UHGV virus genome: UHGV-0088363
From: a virus
Length of the DNA stretch: 12,800 bases
Direction: 5' to 3' (one strand)
Positions 2,795 through 12,718 of this stretch are shown one piece after another. Every line of letters starts with the position of its first letter. The stretch's first letter is position 1. Below the pieces are notes generated by a model. It searched no databases and was not told where the DNA came from. It saw only the letters and a list, made by a program, of their open reading frames with translations. Made by a program: the position numbers and the translations under genes.

Positions 2795-3301
2795 TTATGG
2801 TCTACCATGGTTTTCATGAAAACCCAGTTCTTTTTCTGCCCTCTTCCTTTCTGCAATAGCGTCAATGATGCTAGCAAATATTCCAAGATATTTGGTGCGC
2901 CCATCTACGCATATATTCGCAATCCACTTACATCTCTCTTTATTGAAATATACTCCAGTCACTCCTGACGAATTGGTTATTTTTCTCTTTTGGTTCTGTG
3001 CATTCTGTTGGTGTGTAACCAATCGAAGATTAGATAGCCTATTATCTGACCTTACTCCATTTATATGATCAATTTTATACCCTAATGGAATCTCACCATT
3101 ATTTATCATCCATATAACGTGGTGAGCATAAGTAATTACACCATCGATAGTTAACATCCTATAACCATCACTCCTAATGTAACCAGCAACACTGCCAACC
3201 TTAACATTATTAGAAGGAGACACTTTCCATCTAAGTACACCTAAAACATCATCATATGATAATTTATTTCTTAATTCGTCTATGTTGCTTATATTTCTCA
3301 T
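2795..3301 (-). CDS. HNH homing endonuclease with AP2-type domain (copy 2)
   Basis: 168-aa ORF with IDHINGVRSDNRLSNLRLVTHQQNAQN followed by SSGVTGVYFNKERCKWIANI (AP2-like). AT-rich. Its start overlaps the 3' end of ninF. Confidence 0.8.
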   Translation of the reverse strand: MRNISNIDELRNKLSYDDVLGVLRWKVSPSNNVKVGSVAGYIRSDGYRMLTIDGVITYAHHVIWMINNGEIPLGYKIDHINGVRSDNRLSNLRLVTHQQNAQNQKRKITNSSGVTGVYFNKERCKWIANICVDGRTKYLGIFASIIDAIAERKRAEKELGFHENHGRP

Positions 3302-3814: not shown

Positions 3815-3987
3815 TTCCTCGCACGATGTCTTAGCCACCGGATATCCCACAGGTGAGCCGTGTAGTTGAAGGTTTTTACGTCAGATTCTTTTGGGATTGG
3901 CTTGCGTTTATTTCTGGAGCGTTTCGTTGGAAGGTATTTGCAGTTTTCGCAGATTATGTCGGTGATACTTCGTCGCTGTCGTCTCAT
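3811..3987 (-). CDS. ninE: NinE
   Basis: 58-aa product [52 protein letters not shown] matches lambda NinE as recalled; ATG overlaps the methyltransferase stop (ATGA). Confidence 0.8.
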
Positions 3988-4514
3988 GCCGCCCTCCTGA
4001 CGCCCTGCCCGATCGCCATCAATGCCGCTTTGGATACGGTAGTAAACATCCGTCGAGGACTGATGAACGGTCGCCAAATTAGCAGCATGGAGCCTTTGCT
4101 GTTTCCCTTCTTCTCCAGCCCTGTCGATGGTTCGATAAAATTAATCCGTCCATCAGTGATAATGCGAACTTCGTCGACACTCTCCAGAGCTTTGCTGAAC
4201 CATCCGACTGACATATCCTCTGGCACAAGCATAACTACCGTCTGTCGCTGTTGTATGCACTGCTCAGCGGCTTTTTCCACCCACGGCCTGATATTGCTGT
4301 ACGGTGGGTTATTCCAGATTGCACCGTGGCTTACCCACTCAGAATTGAGCGCGTCGTCGGCCTCAGTTAGCCAGTGAGCACACAGAGCATTTTTGTCGCT
4401 CGCTGCCGAATCCAGCCAGAATCCAAACTCAATATCCAGTGCATCAAAAAGCCAAAGCGGCGTTTGCCAGCAGTCTCTAACTTCTTTTGGTGTTTCTGAT
4501 TTATGCTTAATCAT
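3984..4514 (-). CDS. Phage Dam-type DNA N6-adenine methyltransferase
   Basis: 176-aa ORF with the N6-adenine MTase catalytic motif NPPY ([20 protein letters not shown]) and an N-terminal [26 protein letters not shown] region typical of small phage Dam-family enzymes. Confidence 0.8.
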
Positions 4515-5038
4515 TCAACCCTCGCATATTGCCCGTGATATTTGTTGATAGCCTCACTGGCAACCAAACCAGCAAGATCAAGATCTTCATAGAACCCAAA
4601 ATGCAACCGGCCAAAATCTGTGCGCACTTGAACGGCCCATTTATTTTTTTGCTTGTTCCATAAAACATTTTTTATTCCAGAACGGCTATTGCACTTAGTT
4701 TTCTGATTTCGGCTGTTTGCTATCCGGCTTGCCTCCCTAAGATTTTTTGGGGAATTGTCCAGCCTGTTTCCGTTAATATGGTCAATATTTTTCAATGGCA
4801 TTCTTTTGTTGTGCAGCGCAAAAACAACTACGTGAACAAACATCTGAATGCCTGCAAAACACACCTGTCTATACCCAGATCCATTTATCGATGTTTTAAT
4901 TTCATCTCCGGCCCGGTGGCTGTGGTTGGGGTGTTTTAGCGAGTCCTTTTTGTATCTGACTGTATCTCCGTCTAAATACAGATAATCCTCAATAAGCCGA
5001 TACCTATCTGACGCTGGCGTATTTGATTTGATAGTCAT
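4511..5038 (-). CDS. HNH homing endonuclease with AP2-type domain (copy 3)
   Basis: 175-aa ORF from the ATG overlapping the ninB stop (ATGA); HNH motif IDHINGNRLDNSPKNLREASRIANSRN followed by SGIKNVLWNKQKNKWAVQV...FGFYEDLDLAGLVASEAINKYHG; its stop overlaps the methyltransferase start. Confidence 0.75.
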   Translation of the reverse strand: MTIKSNTPASDRYRLIEDYLYLDGDTVRYKKDSLKHPNHSHRAGDEIKTSINGSGYRQVCFAGIQMFVHVVVFALHNKRMPLKNIDHINGNRLDNSPKNLREASRIANSRNQKTKCNSRSGIKNVLWNKQKNKWAVQVRTDFGRLHFGFYEDLDLAGLVASEAINKYHGQYARVE

Positions 5039-5475
5039 GCAGCCCGATCTCCCCATCTCGCTTTCCACTCCAGAGCCAGTCTCGCTTCGTCTGACCACTT
5101 AACGCCACGCTCTGTACCGAATGCCTGTATAAGCTCTAATAGCTCCGCAAATTCGCCTACACGCATCCTGCTGGTTGACTGGCCTATTACCACAAAGCCA
5201 TTCCCGGCAAGGTTAGGAACAACGTCCTGCTGCTTTAATGCTGCTGTAAAAACGCACTTCCAGCTTTCTGCATCCAGCCAGCGACCATGCCATTCAACCT
5301 GACGCGAAACGTCACCAAGGCAAGCCCAAAGCTTCCGATTTTGGTCTAAGCTGCGGTTGCGCTCCTGAATGGTTACTACGATTGGTTTTGTTGGGTCTGG
5401 AAGGATTTGCTGGATGGCTTGAATGGCGTTCTGCTGATGGATGGGGCTTCTTAGTTCAAACGTTAGTTTCCTCAT
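5035..5475 (-). CDS. ninB: NinB (Orf-family recombination mediator)
   Basis: 146-aa ORF, nearly collinear with lambda NinB as recalled (PDPTKPIVVTIQERNRSLDQNRKLWACLGDVSRQVEWHGRWLDAESWKCVFTAALK...). Confidence 0.9.
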   Translation of the reverse strand: MRKLTFELRSPIHQQNAIQAIQQILPDPTKPIVVTIQERNRSLDQNRKLWACLGDVSRQVEWHGRWLDAESWKCVFTAALKQQDVVPNLAGNGFVVIGQSTSRMRVGEFAELLELIQAFGTERGVKWSDEARLALEWKARWGDRAA

Positions 5476-6334: not shown

Positions 6335-7771
6335 TCAGAATCCTCCTTTCTTCTTGGACTGCGGTTCCTCGCGTTCACGGCGGCGCATTTCAGCAGACTG
6401 TTGGTCTGTGTCATAAATAGCGCCATTTGCCTGAATGCAATACACCGTGCCGGTATTGCCATGACGATTGAGACGAAGGATTAGTTCGGTTTCACCAGGT
6501 GGAACACTGTCATCAAAAGCACCTTCACGATGGATCCCCACCCAATAATCGCAATCCTGTTCAATCTGCCCTGTATCGCGCGAGTCACTTGGTAATGGGC
6601 GTTTATTGGTTCGGCTTTCCAATGCGCGGTTAAGCTGTGTCAGAAGCACAACAACGCAATCAAGCTCTTTGGCAAGGTTCTTCAATCCTTTGGTGATCAT
6701 GCCGTAAGCAAGGTCGTTGCGATCGGCCTTCTCAGCAGTCATTAGTGTCAGGTAATCGACCAGAATCATGCCAACACATCCTTTTTCTCGCTTGATTCGA
6801 CGGCTTTCGCTGACGATTTGAGCCAGAGATAATCCCGGCGTGTCGTCGATGTAAAGCAGGTCGATTTCACTCAAGCGATTGGCTGTTTCGATCGCCCTGT
6901 TGAAGTCACCATCGTAATCACCCTGATAGCCGTCATCAGCGTCATTTGTCGCCGGAAGGTAAAAAATATTCGGGTTAACACCAGACTTCTGCCCTACCAG
7001 TTTTTCCAGTATCTGATCACCTGGCATTTCAAGGCTGAACATCAGAGCGGGCTTTTTCTCATGCACTGCGCAGTTGATTGCCATCTGGCTGTATAGCGTC
7101 GTTTTCCCCATCTTAGGGCGAGCGCCAATGACAAACAGAGAGCCTTTCACCAGACCTTTCGGTGACAGCATCCTGTCCAGCGATGGGATCCCTGTGCTCA
7201 TTCCTCGTTGTTCGCCTGACGGGTCAAATCGCTTCTCAAGGTCGCTAACCCAGTCTTCCATGACCTCACCAAATGAGCGAAGGCCGCGACGCGATCCGGT
7301 TTTTGCATGGTCTGTCAGTTGCGTGAAAATCGCCTGAATAGCTTCGTACTTCTGCGTTGCAGTCATTCCGTTGCGGGAATAGAGCAATTCCGTCGCTTCA
7401 GTTATGCGGTTGATGGCGTAGCGTTCCATTGCGGTTTCACGAACCTGCATTGCATAGGCAACGATGTTTGCGGCGCTTGGCGTGTTCTTTGCGATCTCAG
7501 CGATATAAGCAAAACCGCCAACAGACGACGTTAACGATTTACGCTCCAGTTCATCGAAAAGCGTCAGGCCATCTACTGGATTTTGCTCCCGGTGCATTCT
7601 GGTTATTTCTTCGAAAAGGATTTTGTGTGGTCGGCTGTAAAATGAATCAGGCTTCAGCATCGCCAGAACTTTCTGGACGCGCTCACTGCTGTCATCATCC
7701 AGAAGCAATCCACCAATCACCGCCTGCTCTGCCTCGATGCTATGGGGCGGCGCATAAAAATTATCGGTCAT
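6335..7771 (-). CDS. Replicative DNA helicase, DnaB family
   Basis: N-terminus [26 protein letters not shown] (DnaB N-domain signature), Walker A GARPKMGKTT, and a downstream ILVDYLTLM-type motif. Start set at the ATG with RBS GAGGGTG rather than the upstream GTG of the track. Confidence 0.85.
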   Translation of the reverse strand: MTDNFYAPPHSIEAEQAVIGGLLLDDDSSERVQKVLAMLKPDSFYSRPHKILFEEITRMHREQNPVDGLTLFDELERKSLTSSVGGFAYIAEIAKNTPSAANIVAYAMQVRETAMERYAINRITEATELLYSRNGMTATQKYEAIQAIFTQLTDHAKTGSRRGLRSFGEVMEDWVSDLEKRFDPSGEQRGMSTGIPSLDRMLSPKGLVKGSLFVIGARPKMGKTTLYSQMAINCAVHEKKPALMFSLEMPGDQILEKLVGQKSGVNPNIFYLPATNDADDGYQGDYDGDFNRAIETANRLSEIDLLYIDDTPGLSLAQIVSESRRIKREKGCVGMILVDYLTLMTAEKADRNDLAYGMITKGLKNLAKELDCVVVLLTQLNRALESRTNKRPLPSDSRDTGQIEQDCDYWVGIHREGAFDDSVPPGETELILRLNRHGNTGTVYCIQANGAIYDTDQQSAEMRRREREEPQSKKKGGF

Positions 7772-8660
7772 CGTGTTCACCCTCACGAACTTTCAGGTAG
7801 GTATTATCGTTAAGCAGGAAATCAAATCCCTTTTTGTGCCAGACGGTTCCGCGTTGATGGTTTGGGCGTTCTTCGAACATCCATCGGCAATTTTCGCCTA
7901 CGTAGCTCAAATAATTTCTCCAGTCCTGCATCGTGAACCCATGCCCGTCAAGCTGGCGGGTTATCACTCCGGCTTTGCGCCAGAACGTTCGGATCTGGTT
8001 TTTACGCTTGTCATTCAGTGCGCGGATTCTTGGCGCTTCAGGAAGGATTTCGTGGTAAGCATCGACAACATCCTGACAGCTGACGGAAGGTTTTTTCTTG
8101 TCAGACTTTTTGTCTGCTGTGGCACTCTCTAATACGTCAGTATTAGAGATAATATTATTATATTCTTTATCTGTGGTAATTTGCTGGTAATCTGCTGGCA
8201 TAGTATTGCTTACAGGCATTGGTATTGCTGGCTTTGAGGTGGTAATTTGCTGGTAATCTGCTGGTACAGAATTTGACTGATAATCGTCATATTTCTCTAC
8301 CGAGAAAACTGAAAATTTACCGTGTGAAACCCAGTCAATCATGCCGAGTTTTTTGAACTTTCTAAGCAGGTACTGAACGCGATCTGGTTTGAGTCCTGTT
8401 TCAAACGCCAGAGAGTTTCTACCGCCAAGTAGCTTCCCTCTGCCTACCAGAATTTCTCCTGCGTCAGTCATTACATACTCAGGCGTATGCTTTGCTTTGA
8501 GGATTAAGTGAACCCACAGATGCGCTGCTTCTGCGTCCTTGTAAAACGGCACATCCATAATTTTACGGTGCAGCAAGGCATACCCCTTACCGCTGCTTTG
8601 ATGCGGTTGTTGTAGCCTTCTGGCCTCTCTGGCTTCGGCTAGATTAGATATGTTACTCAT
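7761..8660 (-). CDS. Replication initiation protein (O-like, iteron-containing), non-lambda allele
   Basis: 299-aa ORF directly upstream of and overlapping the helicase gene; contains the origin-like iterons, which encode a repeated PADYQQITT segment; RBS AAGGAGAAAGG. Not the lambda O sequence. Confidence 0.7.
8129..8264. repeat. Putative replication origin: iterons plus adjacent AT-rich tract inside the O-like gene
   Basis: Exact 26-bp direct repeat GTGGTAATTTGCTGGTAATCTGCTGG at 8173..8198 and 8239..8264, each made of two approx 12-bp GGTAAT(T/C)TGCTG units, with degenerate units between; AT-rich stretch at 8129..8170. Confidence 0.55.
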
Positions 8661-8799
8661 GACCTTTCTCCTTCTGCATCAGCTTCACTTTTTCCAACTC
8701 AGCCCGGAATCGACCAGGCTGCTTGAAGCTGGACAGGAAGCGATCACGTAGTATGTGTTTGTGAATTTTGTCCTGGTAAGGACTGAGTTGTTTTGTCAT
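8653..8799 (-). CDS. Small ORF (48 aa) between cII and the O-like gene; possible recombination-junction ORF
   Basis: Not in the six-frame track (under 60 aa). ATG preceded by ACAGGAGTCATT, which matches the lambda O ribosome-binding region as recalled; stop lies 5 nt past the O-like start. Confidence 0.35.
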
Positions 8800-8833
8800 A
8801 ATGACTCCTGTGGATTGATCCAGTCTTTCTACA

Positions 8834-9112
8834 TCAGGCCTCGAAGAATTCGCCGTTCTTCGGGGCTTTTTCTTTTGTCAGCATTCTGGCTACTTGCTTA
8901 GCCAGTTCCGCCAACTCCTCGTCTTCAACACCCCATTCCAGCACAGCCAGAAGCATGGCCATCTTTGGGATAAAGCTGTCTTTCCATCGCGAAATTTGCG
9001 ATTCATTAATCCCTAACGCGTCGGCAACCTTTCGCTGACCACGTACAGCAATTCGATTCAGGATGTTGCTTGTAATTGCATTCGCTTTCTTGCGAGTACT
9101 TGTAAGTTGCAT
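8834..9112 (-). CDS. cII: CII-family transcriptional activator (divergent allele)
   Basis: 92-aa product from the ATG with RBS AAGGAAAT; core SQISRWK...[15 protein letters not shown] matches the lambda CII core, N- and C-termini differ. The track's upstream extension lacks an RBS. Confidence 0.8.
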
Positions 9113-9191
9113 ATGTAAGTATTTCCTTAGATAACAATTGATTGAATGTATGCAAATAAATGCATACACCATAGGTGTGGTTTAATTTGAT

Positions 9192-9230: not shown

Positions 9231-10245
<1,015 letters not shown>

Positions 10246-10331: not shown

Positions 10332-11237
10332 ATGTCGATTAACAGCAATAGCGAATCCCTGCATCAAATGCAGCTTTTCCCTGTAGTAGAGGTTGTTTCT
10401 GATGATATTCCTATGGGCGTTCTCAATGATGGAACTCCTTACCTAACTCTCTACGGTCTCGCAAAGTTATGCGGCATTGATGACACGCCACTGAGGGTGT
10501 TCACATCAAACTGGAACACAGAGAAAAACAAACCCAGAGGTCAAAAAGTAGCTGCGTATTTAGCTGAGAAAGGGTTTCATAACGTCGAAAAGCTATACAC
10601 TCGCGTTTTAAATAGCTCAAACGTGGAAACTCATGCTTATCCTGACTATGTTTGCATGGCTATCCTCCGTTACTACGCTCTAGATGCCACCAATTTTGAT
10701 AGGTCAGTCGCAATAGGTAATTTTGTTCGCTTGGCTGAGTACACGCTTAAGCGAATGATTTATGAAAAGTCAAATTACAACCCAAATGCTTCAATAGATA
10801 TCTCATTCGAGAACTATAGAGCAAGGATTAAGCTAAACGATCAGATACCGACAACTCATTTTGCAGTATTCAGAGAGATAGCTGACATTGCCATGAACCT
10901 GATCGGAGGAGGATTCCCAATGGATGACACCACATCTTTGGATGGAAGTGTTGGAATTCACTGGGGAAAGTATTGGACAGCTAATGGGCTATCTGAGAAA
11001 TTCGGGGAAAGGGTGCAGTACCCACATTTATTCCCCGAAAATTACAGGCAGTCAGCTGCAAATAAGCATATAACAGCTTGGATTTATCCTATTGAGGCAC
11101 TTGGCGTGTTCAGAAAATGGCTACACGATAATTACGCAATGGAAAAACTGCCAAATTACCTTGGGAACAAAAAGATTAGTAACGCCTCCGAGCTATTAGA
11201 GTCGATAAAAAAACCAGCACTCCCAAATAAGCATTGA
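10332..11237 (+). CDS. Unknown 301-aa protein in the position occupied by rexA-rexB in lambda; candidate lysogen-expressed exclusion/defense gene
   Basis: Uninterrupted ORF with RBS AAGGAAAT, co-directional with cI, followed by a terminator; AT-rich versus flanks; no similarity to RexA/RexB and no kinase or NTPase motifs visible by eye. Confidence 0.7.
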   Translation: MSINSNSESLHQMQLFPVVEVVSDDIPMGVLNDGTPYLTLYGLAKLCGIDDTPLRVFTSNWNTEKNKPRGQKVAAYLAEKGFHNVEKLYTRVLNSSNVETHAYPDYVCMAILRYYALDATNFDRSVAIGNFVRLAEYTLKRMIYEKSNYNPNASIDISFENYRARIKLNDQIPTTHFAVFREIADIAMNLIGGGFPMDDTTSLDGSVGIHWGKYWTANGLSEKFGERVQYPHLFPENYRQSAANKHITAWIYPIEALGVFRKWLHDNYAMEKLPNYLGNKKISNASELLESIKKPALPNKH

Positions 11238-11756: not shown

Positions 11757-12083
11757 ATGGATGCACAAACACGCCGCCGCGAACGTCGCGCAGAGAAACA
11801 GGCTCAATGGAAAGCAGCAAATCCCCTGTTAGTTGGGGTAAGCGCAAAACCAGTTAACCGCCCTATTCTCTCGCTGAATCGCAAACCGAAATCACGAGTA
11901 GAAAGCGCACTGAATCCGATAGACCTTACGGTGCTGGCTGAATACCACGAACAGATTGAAAGCAACCTGCAGCGTATTGAGCGCAAGAATCAGCGCACAT
12001 GGTACAGCAAGCCACGCAGTGAAATGGGTGTGACTTGTGTTGGTCGCCAGAAAATGAAATTAGGCAGCAAACCACTTATTTGA
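11757..12083 (+). CDS. N: N antitermination protein
   Basis: 108-aa ORF MDAQTRRRERRAEKQAQWKAANPLLVGVSAKPVNRPILSLNRKPKSRVESALNPIDLTVLAEYH..., arginine-rich motif at the N-terminus; RBS ACAGGAGAATCCAG; the C-terminal approx 20 residues differ from lambda N as recalled. Confidence 0.95.
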   Translation: MDAQTRRRERRAEKQAQWKAANPLLVGVSAKPVNRPILSLNRKPKSRVESALNPIDLTVLAEYHEQIESNLQRIERKNQRTWYSKPRSEMGVTCVGRQKMKLGSKPLI

Positions 12084-12094
12084 GAGGAATTAAT

Positions 12095-12718
12095 ATGTCA
12101 TCAATCCGCTTAACTACGAGAATGAAAGAGGAAATCGCTCGTAACGCTTTAATTAAGTCTGGGTTTTTCACTGAACTTAAAGAAGTAACAAAGTTAAAGA
12201 ACCAGCTTGCACTTGACGCCAGAGTTATTGCGTTTGGCGGTAAAAAGAAAACTGAGGAAGTGGATCAGTTATCATCCAAGTTGGTAGCTATAAGTGAAGA
12301 ACTTGAAAAGATGGGATGTTCATTTTACTCATACGATGTTCGTTCTACTTCAATTTATCTGACTGTATCTGGCAGAAGGGTTGGATGGCATTCATATGGG
12401 AAAGACGGCAACGGCGAAGATATATTGCTCCCTACTCCGACCAAAGATAAATGCATGTTTAGCGCAGAACACGAAATAACAAAAAGGTTTGATGAAATCT
12501 GCGCATTGCAACAAAAACTTGAAGCCAAGAAAAAGGATATCGAATCAAATGTATGGGCTGCTTTGAACTCAGTCACAACAGTTAAGCGACTTATTGAAGT
12601 TTGGCCTGAAAGCAAAGAATTGCTACCAGAAGAAGCAGATAAAGCAAGTACAGCACTTCCTGCTTTACGGGTAGAAGATTTGAATAAGATGATTGGACTT
12701 CCTTCCGAGGCCGCATAG
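12095..12718 (+). CDS. Unknown 207-aa protein immediately downstream of N; candidate moron
   Basis: ATG 11 nt after the N stop with GAGGA inside the N 3' end; AT-rich; charged, coiled-coil-like sequence; followed by a hairpin and T-rich tract. The track's upstream extension (12035) overlaps N and is not used. Confidence 0.65.
   Translation: MSSIRLTTRMKEEIARNALIKSGFFTELKEVTKLKNQLALDARVIAFGGKKKTEEVDQLSSKLVAISEELEKMGCSFYSYDVRSTSIYLTVSGRRVGWHSYGKDGNGEDILLPTPTKDKCMFSAEHEITKRFDEICALQQKLEAKKKDIESNVWAALNSVTTVKRLIEVWPESKELLPEEADKASTALPALRVEDLNKMIGLPSEAA

Follow-up and report, generated by a model that had tools for sequence, protein, structure and literature searches.

The DNA analysed here, a window of 12,800 nt, contains what is very probably an ordinary early-right region of a lambdoid prophage, built from interchangeable modules. 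The window is oriented in reverse of the lambda map, and the genes discussed all lie on its minus strand. The modules follow one another as a lambda cI-cro-nutR segment, a cII gene of the HK620/Sf6 type, an oop/pO unit, orf48, and an O gene of the HK620 type with a DnaB-like helicase gene. Their borders fall on three short conserved patches, each of which carries overlapping signals. At a coverage of at least 80%, the combination of lambda immunity, HK620-type cII and orf48 was confined to 4 of the 5,426 complete E. coli genomes. The same joints are also present in HK542, HK544, Sf6, HK620, mEp235 and many prophages, and are not peculiar to the window.

An earlier note on this sequence had placed mosaic joints at the cII start and at a lambda O-like start, and had proposed a crossover as the possible origin of a new small coupled ORF of 48 codons. 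Alignment to lambda and other lambdoid genomes shows that both joints are genuine, with breakpoints where the note had put them. The ORF is not new: it belongs to an established family, DUF2740, and is conserved as a bona fide gene. The joints, the patches and orf48 are already in the literature (Oberto 1994; Clark 2001; Hayes 2012) and in the curated P22 and Sf6 records. Since the joints coincide with known patches and orf48 is a long-known conserved gene, the finding is an ordinary one.

The cII start

Identity to lambda is 99.2% from position 9700 down to 9110 and then gives way to divergence, in agreement with the earlier description of the sequence as lambda-like up to the cII ribosome-binding site. 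Position 9110, the last lambda-identical position, is the G of the cII ATG and corresponds to lambda 38362; identity to HK620 starts at 9129. The first conserved patch (9110..9129, minus strand) is 20 nt long and reads TAAGGAAATACTTACATATG. Its minus strand includes the ribosome-binding site and ATG of cII, and its plus strand the -10 and start region of the leftward promoter pRE. This 20-nt core is common to neighbours of the lambda, HK620 and CUS-3 types.

The pRE-type promoter predicted from the sequence (9090..9122, plus strand) has CII-binding repeats ttgc (9090-9093) and ttgt (9100-9103) on either side of a poor -35, a 17-nt spacer, and the -10 element aagtat at 9117-9122. HK620, P22 and Sf6 have pRE and cII-binding features annotated at the corresponding place, and the HK542 and HK544 immunity records carry a "minus_10_signal" beneath the match to the cII-start patch. 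As in lambda, the cII ribosome site and ATG overlap the pRE -10 (AAGTAT) and the TTGC-N6-TTGY repeats lie within the first cII codons, but the second repeat is TTGT here and TTGC in lambda.

The gene itself (8834..9112, minus strand) encodes a cII-like transcriptional activator of 92 aa, of the HK620/Sf6 allele type. Its product matches Phage_CII (PF05269) along the entire profile (positions 1-91 of 91; 143 bits, E 3.4e-42), the gene follows cro-nutR-tR1 as is usual for phage CII activators, and it shares 98.6% nucleotide identity with HK620 cII. The protein shares 54% identity over 85 residues with lambda CII, so that the resemblance goes beyond the short core to which the earlier note had limited it. 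An alternative product of 112 aa, from the upstream ATG at 9172 that is used as the start in the HK542 record, was rejected; we prefer the ATG at 9112 because the conserved ribosome site lies there and because it is the annotated start in HK620, P22 and Sf6.

The boundary sequence bsq5

The second patch (8792..8824, minus strand) is the lambdoid boundary sequence bsq5, 33 nt in length. Read from 8824 to 8792 on the minus strand it is ACTGGATCAATCCACAGGAGTCATTATGACAAA; the corresponding lambda O start is ACTGGATCTATCAACAGGAGTCATTATGACAAA. The two are identical at 31 of 33 positions, and neither flank of the block aligns to lambda, so the earlier observation that the 48-codon ORF opens with the lambda O ribosome site and first codons holds. 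By our own estimate, such a match within about 300 nt cannot be due to chance. Identity to mEp235 starts at 8824, and identity to HK542 stops at 8790.

The block contains the 5' end of oop, the -10 element of pO, a strong AGGAG ribosome site, the ATG and the first two or three codons of the downstream gene. It is present in 352 phage records, ahead of O, orf48, genes similar to HK97 gp53, ES18 gp58 and others. It is labelled "bsq5; boundary sequence" in the Sf6 genome record and is "sequence 5" of Clark et al. (2001, J Mol Biol 311:657). The block in the window does not differ from that of known lambdoid phages, in which the same 33 nt occupy the same place ahead of the first gene after cII. 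An alignment of this box across 23 phages was made by Hayes et al. (2012), who describe pO as spanning it.

The slot that follows bsq5 can be filled by another gene. In HK97 (gp53), Sf6 (gp42) and HK542 (gp40) it holds an ORF of PHROG 1331 that has the same ATGACAAAAC start, carries TACCAGGA at the position of the pO -35, and overlaps the start of the initiator gene. This ORF differs from orf48 in its length of 53 aa, its unrelated sequence and its PHROG. It is therefore the slot, and not the gene, that is constant.

The predicted oop antisense RNA and its promoter

A leftward sigma-70 promoter of the pO type was predicted from the sequence at 8774..8802 on the plus strand, with a -35-like tggtaa at 8774-8779, TG at 8794-8795 and the -10 element cataat at 8797-8802. 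It maps onto the oop promoter annotated in P22. The -10 is the complement of the orf48 start-codon region (ATTATG). The "lambda O first codons" of orf48 are thus the pO promoter read on the opposite strand, with ATG complementing the CAT of CATAAT and the second codon, ACA, complementing TGT. The lambda-like start of orf48 is the conserved pO/oop promoter box, which in lambdoid phages stands ahead of whichever gene comes after cII, and not a scar. Lambda (TGT CATAAT gactcct G...) and nine other elements share exactly this layout. A simple scan for two-hexamer promoters did not list pO, because its -35 is weak.

The oop-type antisense RNA predicted downstream of this promoter (8810..8876, plus strand) would be about 62-67 nt long, with its 5' end at g8810. 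A terminator scan found an intrinsic terminator with a stem at 8836-8868, of 14 pairs, followed by a T tract; its fold has a free energy of -27.9 kcal/mol (z = -4.4). The RNA would overlap the last 13 or so codons of cII, whose stop is at 8834-8836. These positions agree with the curated P22 record, in which the oop promoter lies across the orf48 start and the terminator lies in the 3' end of c1. An Rfam scan of the whole window returned two tRNAs only and nothing at the oop position; oop was therefore assigned from its sequence, its fold and the annotation of P22. Equivalent hairpins with T runs, of different sequence, are found in lambda, P22, mEp235 and the Erwinia, Klebsiella and Pluralibacter elements, and the pO layout and terminator hairpin are kept across 12 elements despite the changed sequence.

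The likeness to lambda extends to the extended -10 (TGnCATAAT), the 7-nt discriminator gactcct and the G start, to the first 13 or so nucleotides of the transcript (GTGGATTGATCCAG here, GTTGATAGATCCAG in lambda), to a strong intrinsic terminator, and to an overlap with the cII 3' end. In contrast, the body and terminator of the predicted RNA are those of the P22/HK620 type, its length falls about 10 nt short of the 77 nt of lambda, and the -35 region (tggtaa) falls within codons 7-9 of orf48 rather than within O. OOP has been detected by RNA-seq in BTP1, a prophage that carries orf48 (PMC7067206). In lambda genetics, the oop transcript lowers cII expression in an RNase III-dependent manner. 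A role for pO in the control of lambda replication has been demonstrated (Olszewski et al. 2014).

The orf48 stop and the replication genes

A third joint, absent from the earlier note, lies at the end of orf48. The patch found there (8653..8664, minus strand) is only 12 nt long, GGTCATGAGTAA, and has the C-terminus and stop of orf48 (G H E *) running into the first codons of the gene that follows (M S N). The last codons of orf48, GGT CAT GAG TAA, contain the ATG of the O-like gene (8660-8658), giving an overlap of 8 nt, ATGAGTAA; the ORF had indeed been described as stopping inside the start of a non-lambda O-like gene. The patch is invariant in 10 of the 11 elements compared, and at least four unrelated downstream genes start there. 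An internal AAGGAG ahead of the O-like ATG is conserved, as is the overlap.

The gene that begins here (7761..8660, minus strand) encodes a replication initiator of 299 aa, of the HK620/HK022 type. It matches PHROG 345, "replication initiation O-like" (E 2e-87), as well as DnaD-like loader PHROGs; it has no BLASTP similarity to lambda O and no match to Pfam Phage_rep_O (PF04492). Origin iterons lie within the gene at about 8173-8273, including two direct repeats of GTGGTAATTTGCTGGTAATCTGCTGG, and map to the rep_origin feature of HK620. The initiator is of a family distinct from lambda O and P22 gp18, yet it works in an O-like manner, with iterons inside its gene and a helicase gene next to it. 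This helicase gene (6335..7771, minus strand) overlaps the end of the O-like gene and encodes a DnaB-like replicative helicase of the P22 gp12/HK022 gp55 type (Pfam DnaB, E 6e-31; DnaB_C, E 3e-60); its start at 7771 was taken from the HK620 annotation.

In prophage EC19 a GIY-YIG nuclease follows orf48. No such nuclease was present after orf48 in the 89 loci examined, and this arrangement is a rare insertion.

Breakpoints and the mode of exchange

The ends of identity were located in 82 independent orf48 loci by ungapped extension, which an indel would also terminate. By this measure the left breakpoints most often fall at 8824 (19 loci), 9129 (18) and 8881 (16), and the right breakpoint is exactly 8653 in 50 of the 82. 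Identity to the KE40 and EC19 prophages likewise stops at 8653/8652. Breakpoints at or inside bsq5 were seen in 25 of the 82 loci, six of them inside it (8802-8811). Some breakpoints are located away from the patches, among them those at 8833, 8842, 9152 and 9209.

We propose that the double duty of the patches on two strands would keep them conserved, and that the conserved patches would in turn serve as homology islands, at which homologous recombination could swap the flanking modules in frame. An unlikely alternative is that recombination is illegitimate and strikes at random positions, with selection leaving those products joined at gene boundaries; the patches would then be by-products of shared regulation and not substrates for exchange. 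Selection for intact genes would also put the surviving joints at gene borders, so that the clustering at patch edges is compatible with this alternative too, and the breakpoints outside the patches fit it. The third and first patches are, moreover, just 12 and 20 nt long, and 12-20 nt is short for a RecA-type exchange. However, dozens of independent combinations have breakpoints that coincide with patch edges to the nucleotide, and some breakpoints lie within bsq5. Reading frame and promoter spacing are also preserved exactly at the joints, which is what exchange within homology would give. In a laboratory lambda/P22 hybrid, the crossover was mapped inside pO, within the bsq5 box (Hayes et al. 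2012).

The orf48 gene and its family

orf48 (8653..8799, minus strand), also known as hkaW or as the DUF2740 gene, encodes a basic protein of 48 aa. The protein matches Pfam DUF2740 (PF10872) across the whole profile (positions 1-43 of 43) with 99.4 bits and E 8.9e-29, against a curated cut-off of 27 bits, and matches PHROG 1913 with E 2.7e-28. It is identical to HK022 gene 53 and HK620 hkaW (100% in each case), and shares 85% identity with P22 orf48 and 58% with a protein of an Erwinia phage. The gene was found in 127 phage records and in 400 of the 5,426 complete E. coli genomes (about 7%). The HK022 homologue was described in 1994 (Oberto 1994).

P22 orf48, HK620 hkaW and HK022 gene 53 are all 48 aa long, lie between cII (or c1) and the replication initiator, and show the same overlap with it; the copy in the window differs from them in nothing intrinsic, only in its combination with a lambda immunity region and an HK620-type cII. 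Synteny holds for the family at large: a product of 46-48 aa, encoded between a cII-like gene and an initiator and with the stop/start overlap, is found in P22, HK022, HK620, the Erwinia phage and prophages of Klebsiella and Pluralibacter. Length, position and overlap are kept in elements of Escherichia, Salmonella, Klebsiella, Pluralibacter, Citrobacter, Atlantibacter and Erwinia.

The gene is absent from several deposited annotations, and other P22 papers mention it only within cloned fragments. PHROG 1913 bears the label "tail protein", which has been carried into RefSeq; we reject this label, since in every element examined orf48 is an early-right gene that sits in the operon after cII and ahead of the initiator. 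The "orf48" of Silas et al. (gnarl1) apparently follows that paper's own numbering and is unrelated, as judged by context without a sequence comparison.

The dN/dS of orf48 is about 0.05-0.35, a value that rests on few, short sequences of a narrow family. Protein identity peaks in the middle 30 codons. By contrast, it is only the first 11 and the last 7 codons whose synonymous sites hardly vary; 92-94% of codons are identical there, versus 67% otherwise. This pattern fits a constraint from promoter and ribosome sites at the ends and a constraint on the protein in the core. Nine residues are invariant in 28 sequences of the family (H13, K14, I16, D19, R20, L22, E34, E36 and K39), and the motif HK.I.RD is kept in its most distant members. 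Judged from these comparisons, orf48 is a conserved, old gene of the DUF2740 family under purifying selection at the protein level.

It may be asked whether translation of orf48 matters only as a leader or spacer, by which ribosomes loaded at bsq5 would reach the initiator ATG and the distance from pO to the origin would be set, the peptide itself being without function. The conserved 8-nt overlap and internal AAGGAG are compatible with such a role, as is the unrelated 53-codon ORF that fills the slot in other phages; lambda manages without the ORF (Hayes et al. 2012), and Olszewski et al. (2014) treat the relative position of pO and origin as a variable in lambda plasmid replication. We nevertheless consider this reading unlikely. 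The middle 30 codons have no known overlapping signal, yet they combine the highest amino acid conservation with free synonymous change (dN/dS 0.05-0.3); the invariant residues and the persistence of HK.I.RD likewise speak against it.

That the crossing-over of a lambda-like O start with foreign DNA produced a scar, open by accident for 48 codons and possibly translated as a new coupled ORF, is scarcely credible: the ORF does start with the lambda O ribosome site and ATGACAAA and does lie between two mosaic joints, but it is a curated Pfam family, annotated in P22 and HK620 and known since 1994 in HK022, with a dN/dS far below 1 and with its length, position and stop/start overlap all maintained, and it is conserved at 58-100% amino acid identity in elements of at least eight genera of Enterobacterales, where the members at 58-85% identity exclude the homologues being recent copies of one recombinant. 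An old gene under selection at the protein level is therefore not a crossover scar.

Possible roles of the orf48 product

orf48 would be translated off the pR transcript by means of the bsq5 ribosome site, and termination within ATGAGTAA would couple translation of the initiator gene to it. An AlphaFold2 model of the product is a hairpin of two helices (residues 7-23 and 28-44; mean pLDDT 81). This confident model, the low dN/dS and the strong AGGAG site lend indirect support to a stable, active protein. A Foldseek search of the PDB with this model gave no match, a hairpin of 48 aa being too generic. A profile search of 1.84 billion cluster representatives gave 19 matches, all of them DUF2740 or fragments, and no family of known function. 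None of the papers searched deals with DUF2740, and orf48 is part of no known defence system model in PADLOC. The product, a predicted basic helical hairpin with an invariant HK-I-RD...E-E..K core, most likely acts early, as an accessory factor in either the replication or the lysis-lysogeny module.

Across 89 loci orf48 is linked to cII genes of three types and to initiators of two or three, and the downstream helicase is always phage-encoded, either DnaB-like or a toprim primase-helicase. A loader of the lambda P type, which hijacks host DnaB, accompanied orf48 in none of the 89. This linkage might suggest that orf48 is a dedicated accessory factor for those lambdoid replication modules that bring their own helicase, although we hold this to be very unlikely. 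If the linkage were functional, the 48-aa hairpin could recruit the helicase or shut out the host DnaB-DnaC pathway. A simpler reading is that lambda-type O genes have bsq5 at their own start, such that an exchange at bsq5 removes orf48.

Significance

Beyond correct annotation, the region is of little significance. It is a clean textbook example of module exchange among lambdoid phages at short patches that are kept constant by signals on two strands, and it shows how a small ORF can seem to have "borrowed" the start of another gene.

Gene order and nearest relatives

The window is in the reverse orientation to the lambda map. Cro (9231-9431), a cII-like gene (8834-9112, 92 aa from the ATG at 9112), a 48-aa ORF (orf48, 8653-8799), an O-like gene of 299 aa (7761-8660) and a DnaB-like helicase gene (6335-7771) lie on the - strand, and cI (9532-10245) on the + strand. 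No phage record singly spans more than 49% of the window. The 1.2-kb study region has its nearest match in a prophage of E. coli CS18F (99.2%), and the exact combination of modules was found in only 4 of 5,426 complete E. coli genomes.

Directly 3' of the lambda-type cI, in the slot of lambda rexA-rexB, lies a BstA abortive-infection defence gene (301 aa, 10332-11237, +), assigned by PADLOC (BstA, E 1.3e-105) and PHROG 6287; the same ORF had no match in Pfam. Three HNH_3 endonuclease ORFs, all on the - strand (867-1379, 2795-3301 and 4511-5098), are spread over the nin/Q region, an unusually large number of homing-endonuclease-like genes within 5 kb. The first of these additionally carries an AP2 domain and sits downstream of Q, with phage-borne tRNA-Thr(tgt) and tRNA-Asn(gtt) genes (657-812, -) between it and the holin gene. 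The nin region also includes a Dam-family adenine methyltransferase (3984-4514, -), and an ORF with an Nmad5 (nucleotide-modification-associated) domain lies just beyond N (12035-12718, +), its listed TTG start overlapping the 3' end of N.

The joint at the cII start

An earlier note on this DNA had proposed mosaic joints at the cII and O starts and had suggested that the 48-aa ORF might be a new ORF born of a crossover scar. What the note had observed proved correct throughout. Alignment to lambda and other lambdoid genomes bears out half of its interpretation: both joints are real and lie where they had been placed, but the ORF is no scar. Identity to lambda is 99.2% from 9700 down to 9110, equivalent to lambda 38362, where the cII ATG ends; beyond it the two diverge, as the note had described. 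The cII-like protein is a homologous, divergent allele of lambda CII (54% identity across 85 residues; Pfam Phage_CII, E 3e-42). Its frame is open upstream as far as an ATG at 9172, giving a 112-aa form that is annotated in the HK542 record; the conserved ribosome site, the pRE layout and the annotations of HK620, P22 and Sf6 favour the ATG at 9112.

A 20-nt patch at the joint (9110-9129, TAAGGAAATACTTACATATG) is common to three classes of neighbours: lambda, 434 and SfI, which match on its upstream side; HK620, HK630 and N7, which match on its downstream side; and CUS-3 and Gally, which match in the patch only. It contains the cII ribosome site and ATG and, on the opposite strand, the pRE -10 (aagtat, 9117-9122); the CII-binding repeats ttgc (9090-9093) and ttgt (9100-9103) fall within the first cII codons.

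orf48 is a conserved lambdoid gene

The 48-codon ORF matches Pfam DUF2740 (99.4 bits, cut-off 27) and PHROG 1913. Its protein is identical to HK620 hkaW and HK022 gene 53, 85% identical to P22 orf48 and 58% identical to ORF62 of Erwinia phage Midgardsormr38. The gene was found in 127 phage records and, at nucleotide identity of at least 95%, in 400 of 5,426 complete E. coli genomes, with the PGAP name "DUF2740 family protein" in the latter. Members were also found in Klebsiella, Pluralibacter, Citrobacter, Enterobacter, Atlantibacter, Pseudescherichia, Biostraticola and one metagenomic contig, in every case between a cII-like gene and a replication initiator, and nearly all keep the ATGAGTAA overlap between the orf48 stop and the ATG of the next gene. 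Searching 1.84 billion representatives with a profile gave only 19 matches; the family is narrow and restricted to lambdoid elements of Enterobacterales. Mention of the gene goes back to HK022 in 1994, and the P22 and HK620 annotations list it as orf48 and hkaW, respectively; being thus conserved and long noted, it is not a crossover scar. RefSeq re-annotations (HK620, HK630, mEp043, Stx2-converting phage 86 and others) call it a "tail protein", a label apparently taken over from PHROG 1913, and in Stx2 II, ST64T and BTP1 it has no annotation. The records thus combine a propagated mis-annotation with a set of missed gene calls.

Pairwise dN/dS (Nei-Gojobori) is 0.19-0.51 for the whole ORF and 0.05-0.31 for the middle codons. 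In the first 11 and last 7 codons synonymous sites are almost frozen (92-94% identical codons among same-residue pairs) and protein identity is modest, whereas protein identity peaks in the middle 30 codons (0.71), where synonymous sites change freely (67% identical codons). Constraint thus acts on the DNA at the two ends and on the protein in the core. Residues K3, H13, K14, I16, D19, R20, L22, E34, E36, K39, H47 and E48 are invariant among 28 sequences. An AlphaFold2 model has helices at 7-23 and 28-44 (mean pLDDT 81), and Foldseek found no neighbour for it in the PDB.

A putative leftward promoter behind the orf48 start

The orf48 start codon lies in a 33-nt block (8824..8792, -), downstream of the cII stop, which contains ACAGGAGTCATTATGACAAA and matches the surroundings of the lambda O start at 31 of 33 positions; neither flank aligns to lambda. 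The ORF does open with the lambda O ribosome site and first codons, as noted earlier, but those codons are a promoter read backwards. The + strand of the block reads ttgttT GT CATAAT gactcct G, a putative extended -10 promoter (TG 8794-8795, CATAAT 8797-8802) followed seven bases on by G 8810, an arrangement identical to that of lambda pO, from which the oop antisense RNA is transcribed. The start codon of orf48 is therefore complementary to the CAT of the -10, and codon 2 (ACA) to the extended -10 TGT. A conserved TACCAGGA in codons 8-10 lies at the -35 position, and an unrelated 53-codon ORF in HK542 and Sf6 has it in common with orf48.

Downstream on the + strand is a 14-pair hairpin (8836-8868), followed by a T run. 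The predicted RNA of about 65 nt (-27.9 kcal/mol, z = -4.4) has fold values comparable to those of lambda oop and, judged by position, would be antisense to the final 13 or so cII codons. The curated P22 record has exactly these features, with an oop promoter spanning the orf48 start and an oop terminator in the 3' end of c1. The promoter-to-terminator layout was the same in all 12 elements examined, with differing hairpin sequences. OOP RNA has been detected by RNA-seq in prophage BTP1 (PMC7067206), which carries orf48. It is established for lambda that pRE and pO function, that CII expression is lowered by oop, and that pO modulates transcription and replication driven by pR.

A third joint and the clustering of breakpoints

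The block is present in 352 phage records, ahead of lambda-type O, orf48, HK97-gp53-type ORFs, ES18 gp58 and others. The Sf6 record annotates it "bsq5; boundary sequence", and Hayes et al. (2012), who aligned it across 23 lambdoid phages, identify it as "sequence 5" of Clark et al. (2001).

The orf48 stop, which as the note had stated overlaps the start of the non-lambda O-like gene (GGT CAT GAG TAA, holding its ATG), is a third joint, one missing from the note. In E. coli KE40 and EC19, prophage sequence follows that of the window to 8653/8652 and then departs from it, KE40 continuing into a different initiator and a toprim primase-helicase and EC19 into a GIY-YIG nuclease gene. A 12-nt GGTCATGAGTAA at the stop is invariant ahead of at least four unrelated genes, each starting MSN. 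The EC19 nuclease gene (L007:3442-4044 in that prophage locus) starts in ATGAGTAA as initiator genes do, and an HTH protein and a toprim helicase are encoded after it; this insertion was absent from 89 other loci.

We extended similarity outward from orf48 in 82 orf48-bearing loci of IMG/VR and GTDB. The right breakpoint fell exactly at 8653 in 50 of these, and the left at 9129 in 18, at 8824 in 19, at 8881 in 16 and inside bsq5 in 6. The oop terminator patch (CTGACAAAAGAAAAAGCCCC), which is kept even in lambda, has its outer edge at 8881; given the recurrence of this endpoint, the last 15 or so cII codons and the terminator travel with orf48 as a unit. The clusters define as modules cro-nutR, the cII body, the oop unit, orf48 and initiator-helicase, which reassort freely; among 89 loci there are three types of cII, two or three of initiator and two of helicase. 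Such joints could also arise by illegitimate recombination and later selection, but we consider this unlikely: the clustering is nucleotide-exact, and a laboratory lambda/P22 hybrid sequenced by Hayes et al. (2012) has its crossover within pO, both of which point to exchange within the patches.

The initiator module

No similarity to lambda O was detectable in the O-like protein, which is not a member of that family. Its gene nevertheless works like lambda O, having iterons within it and a helicase gene behind it. The origin-type iterons (8173-8273) comprise two copies of GTGGTAATTTGCTGGTAATCTGCTGG, built from 11-nt CTGGTAATYTG sub-repeats, and encode a repeated peptide, PADYQQITT. In none of 89 loci was orf48 paired with a lambda-P-type loader, a mildly new observation. 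The simplest explanation is that lambda-type O starts at bsq5, so that an exchange there deletes orf48.

Module exchange in the lambdoid early region

The region is ordinary and already described, and the finding maps wholly onto known entities (DUF2740/orf48/hkaW, bsq5, oop/pO and cII/pRE). What is added here is a quantitative picture of the breakpoints, the third joint at the orf48 stop and the regional split of constraint inside orf48. The comparisons establish where the joints lie, that the patches are conserved, that in them rightward translation signals overlap leftward promoter or terminator signals, and that orf48 is constrained at the protein level. We suggest that orf48 is translated from the pR transcript, that its termination inside the overlap may couple translation of the initiator, and that its peptide may be an early accessory factor. 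The double function would hold the patches constant, and patches so held would serve as islands of homology for the in-frame exchange of modules.
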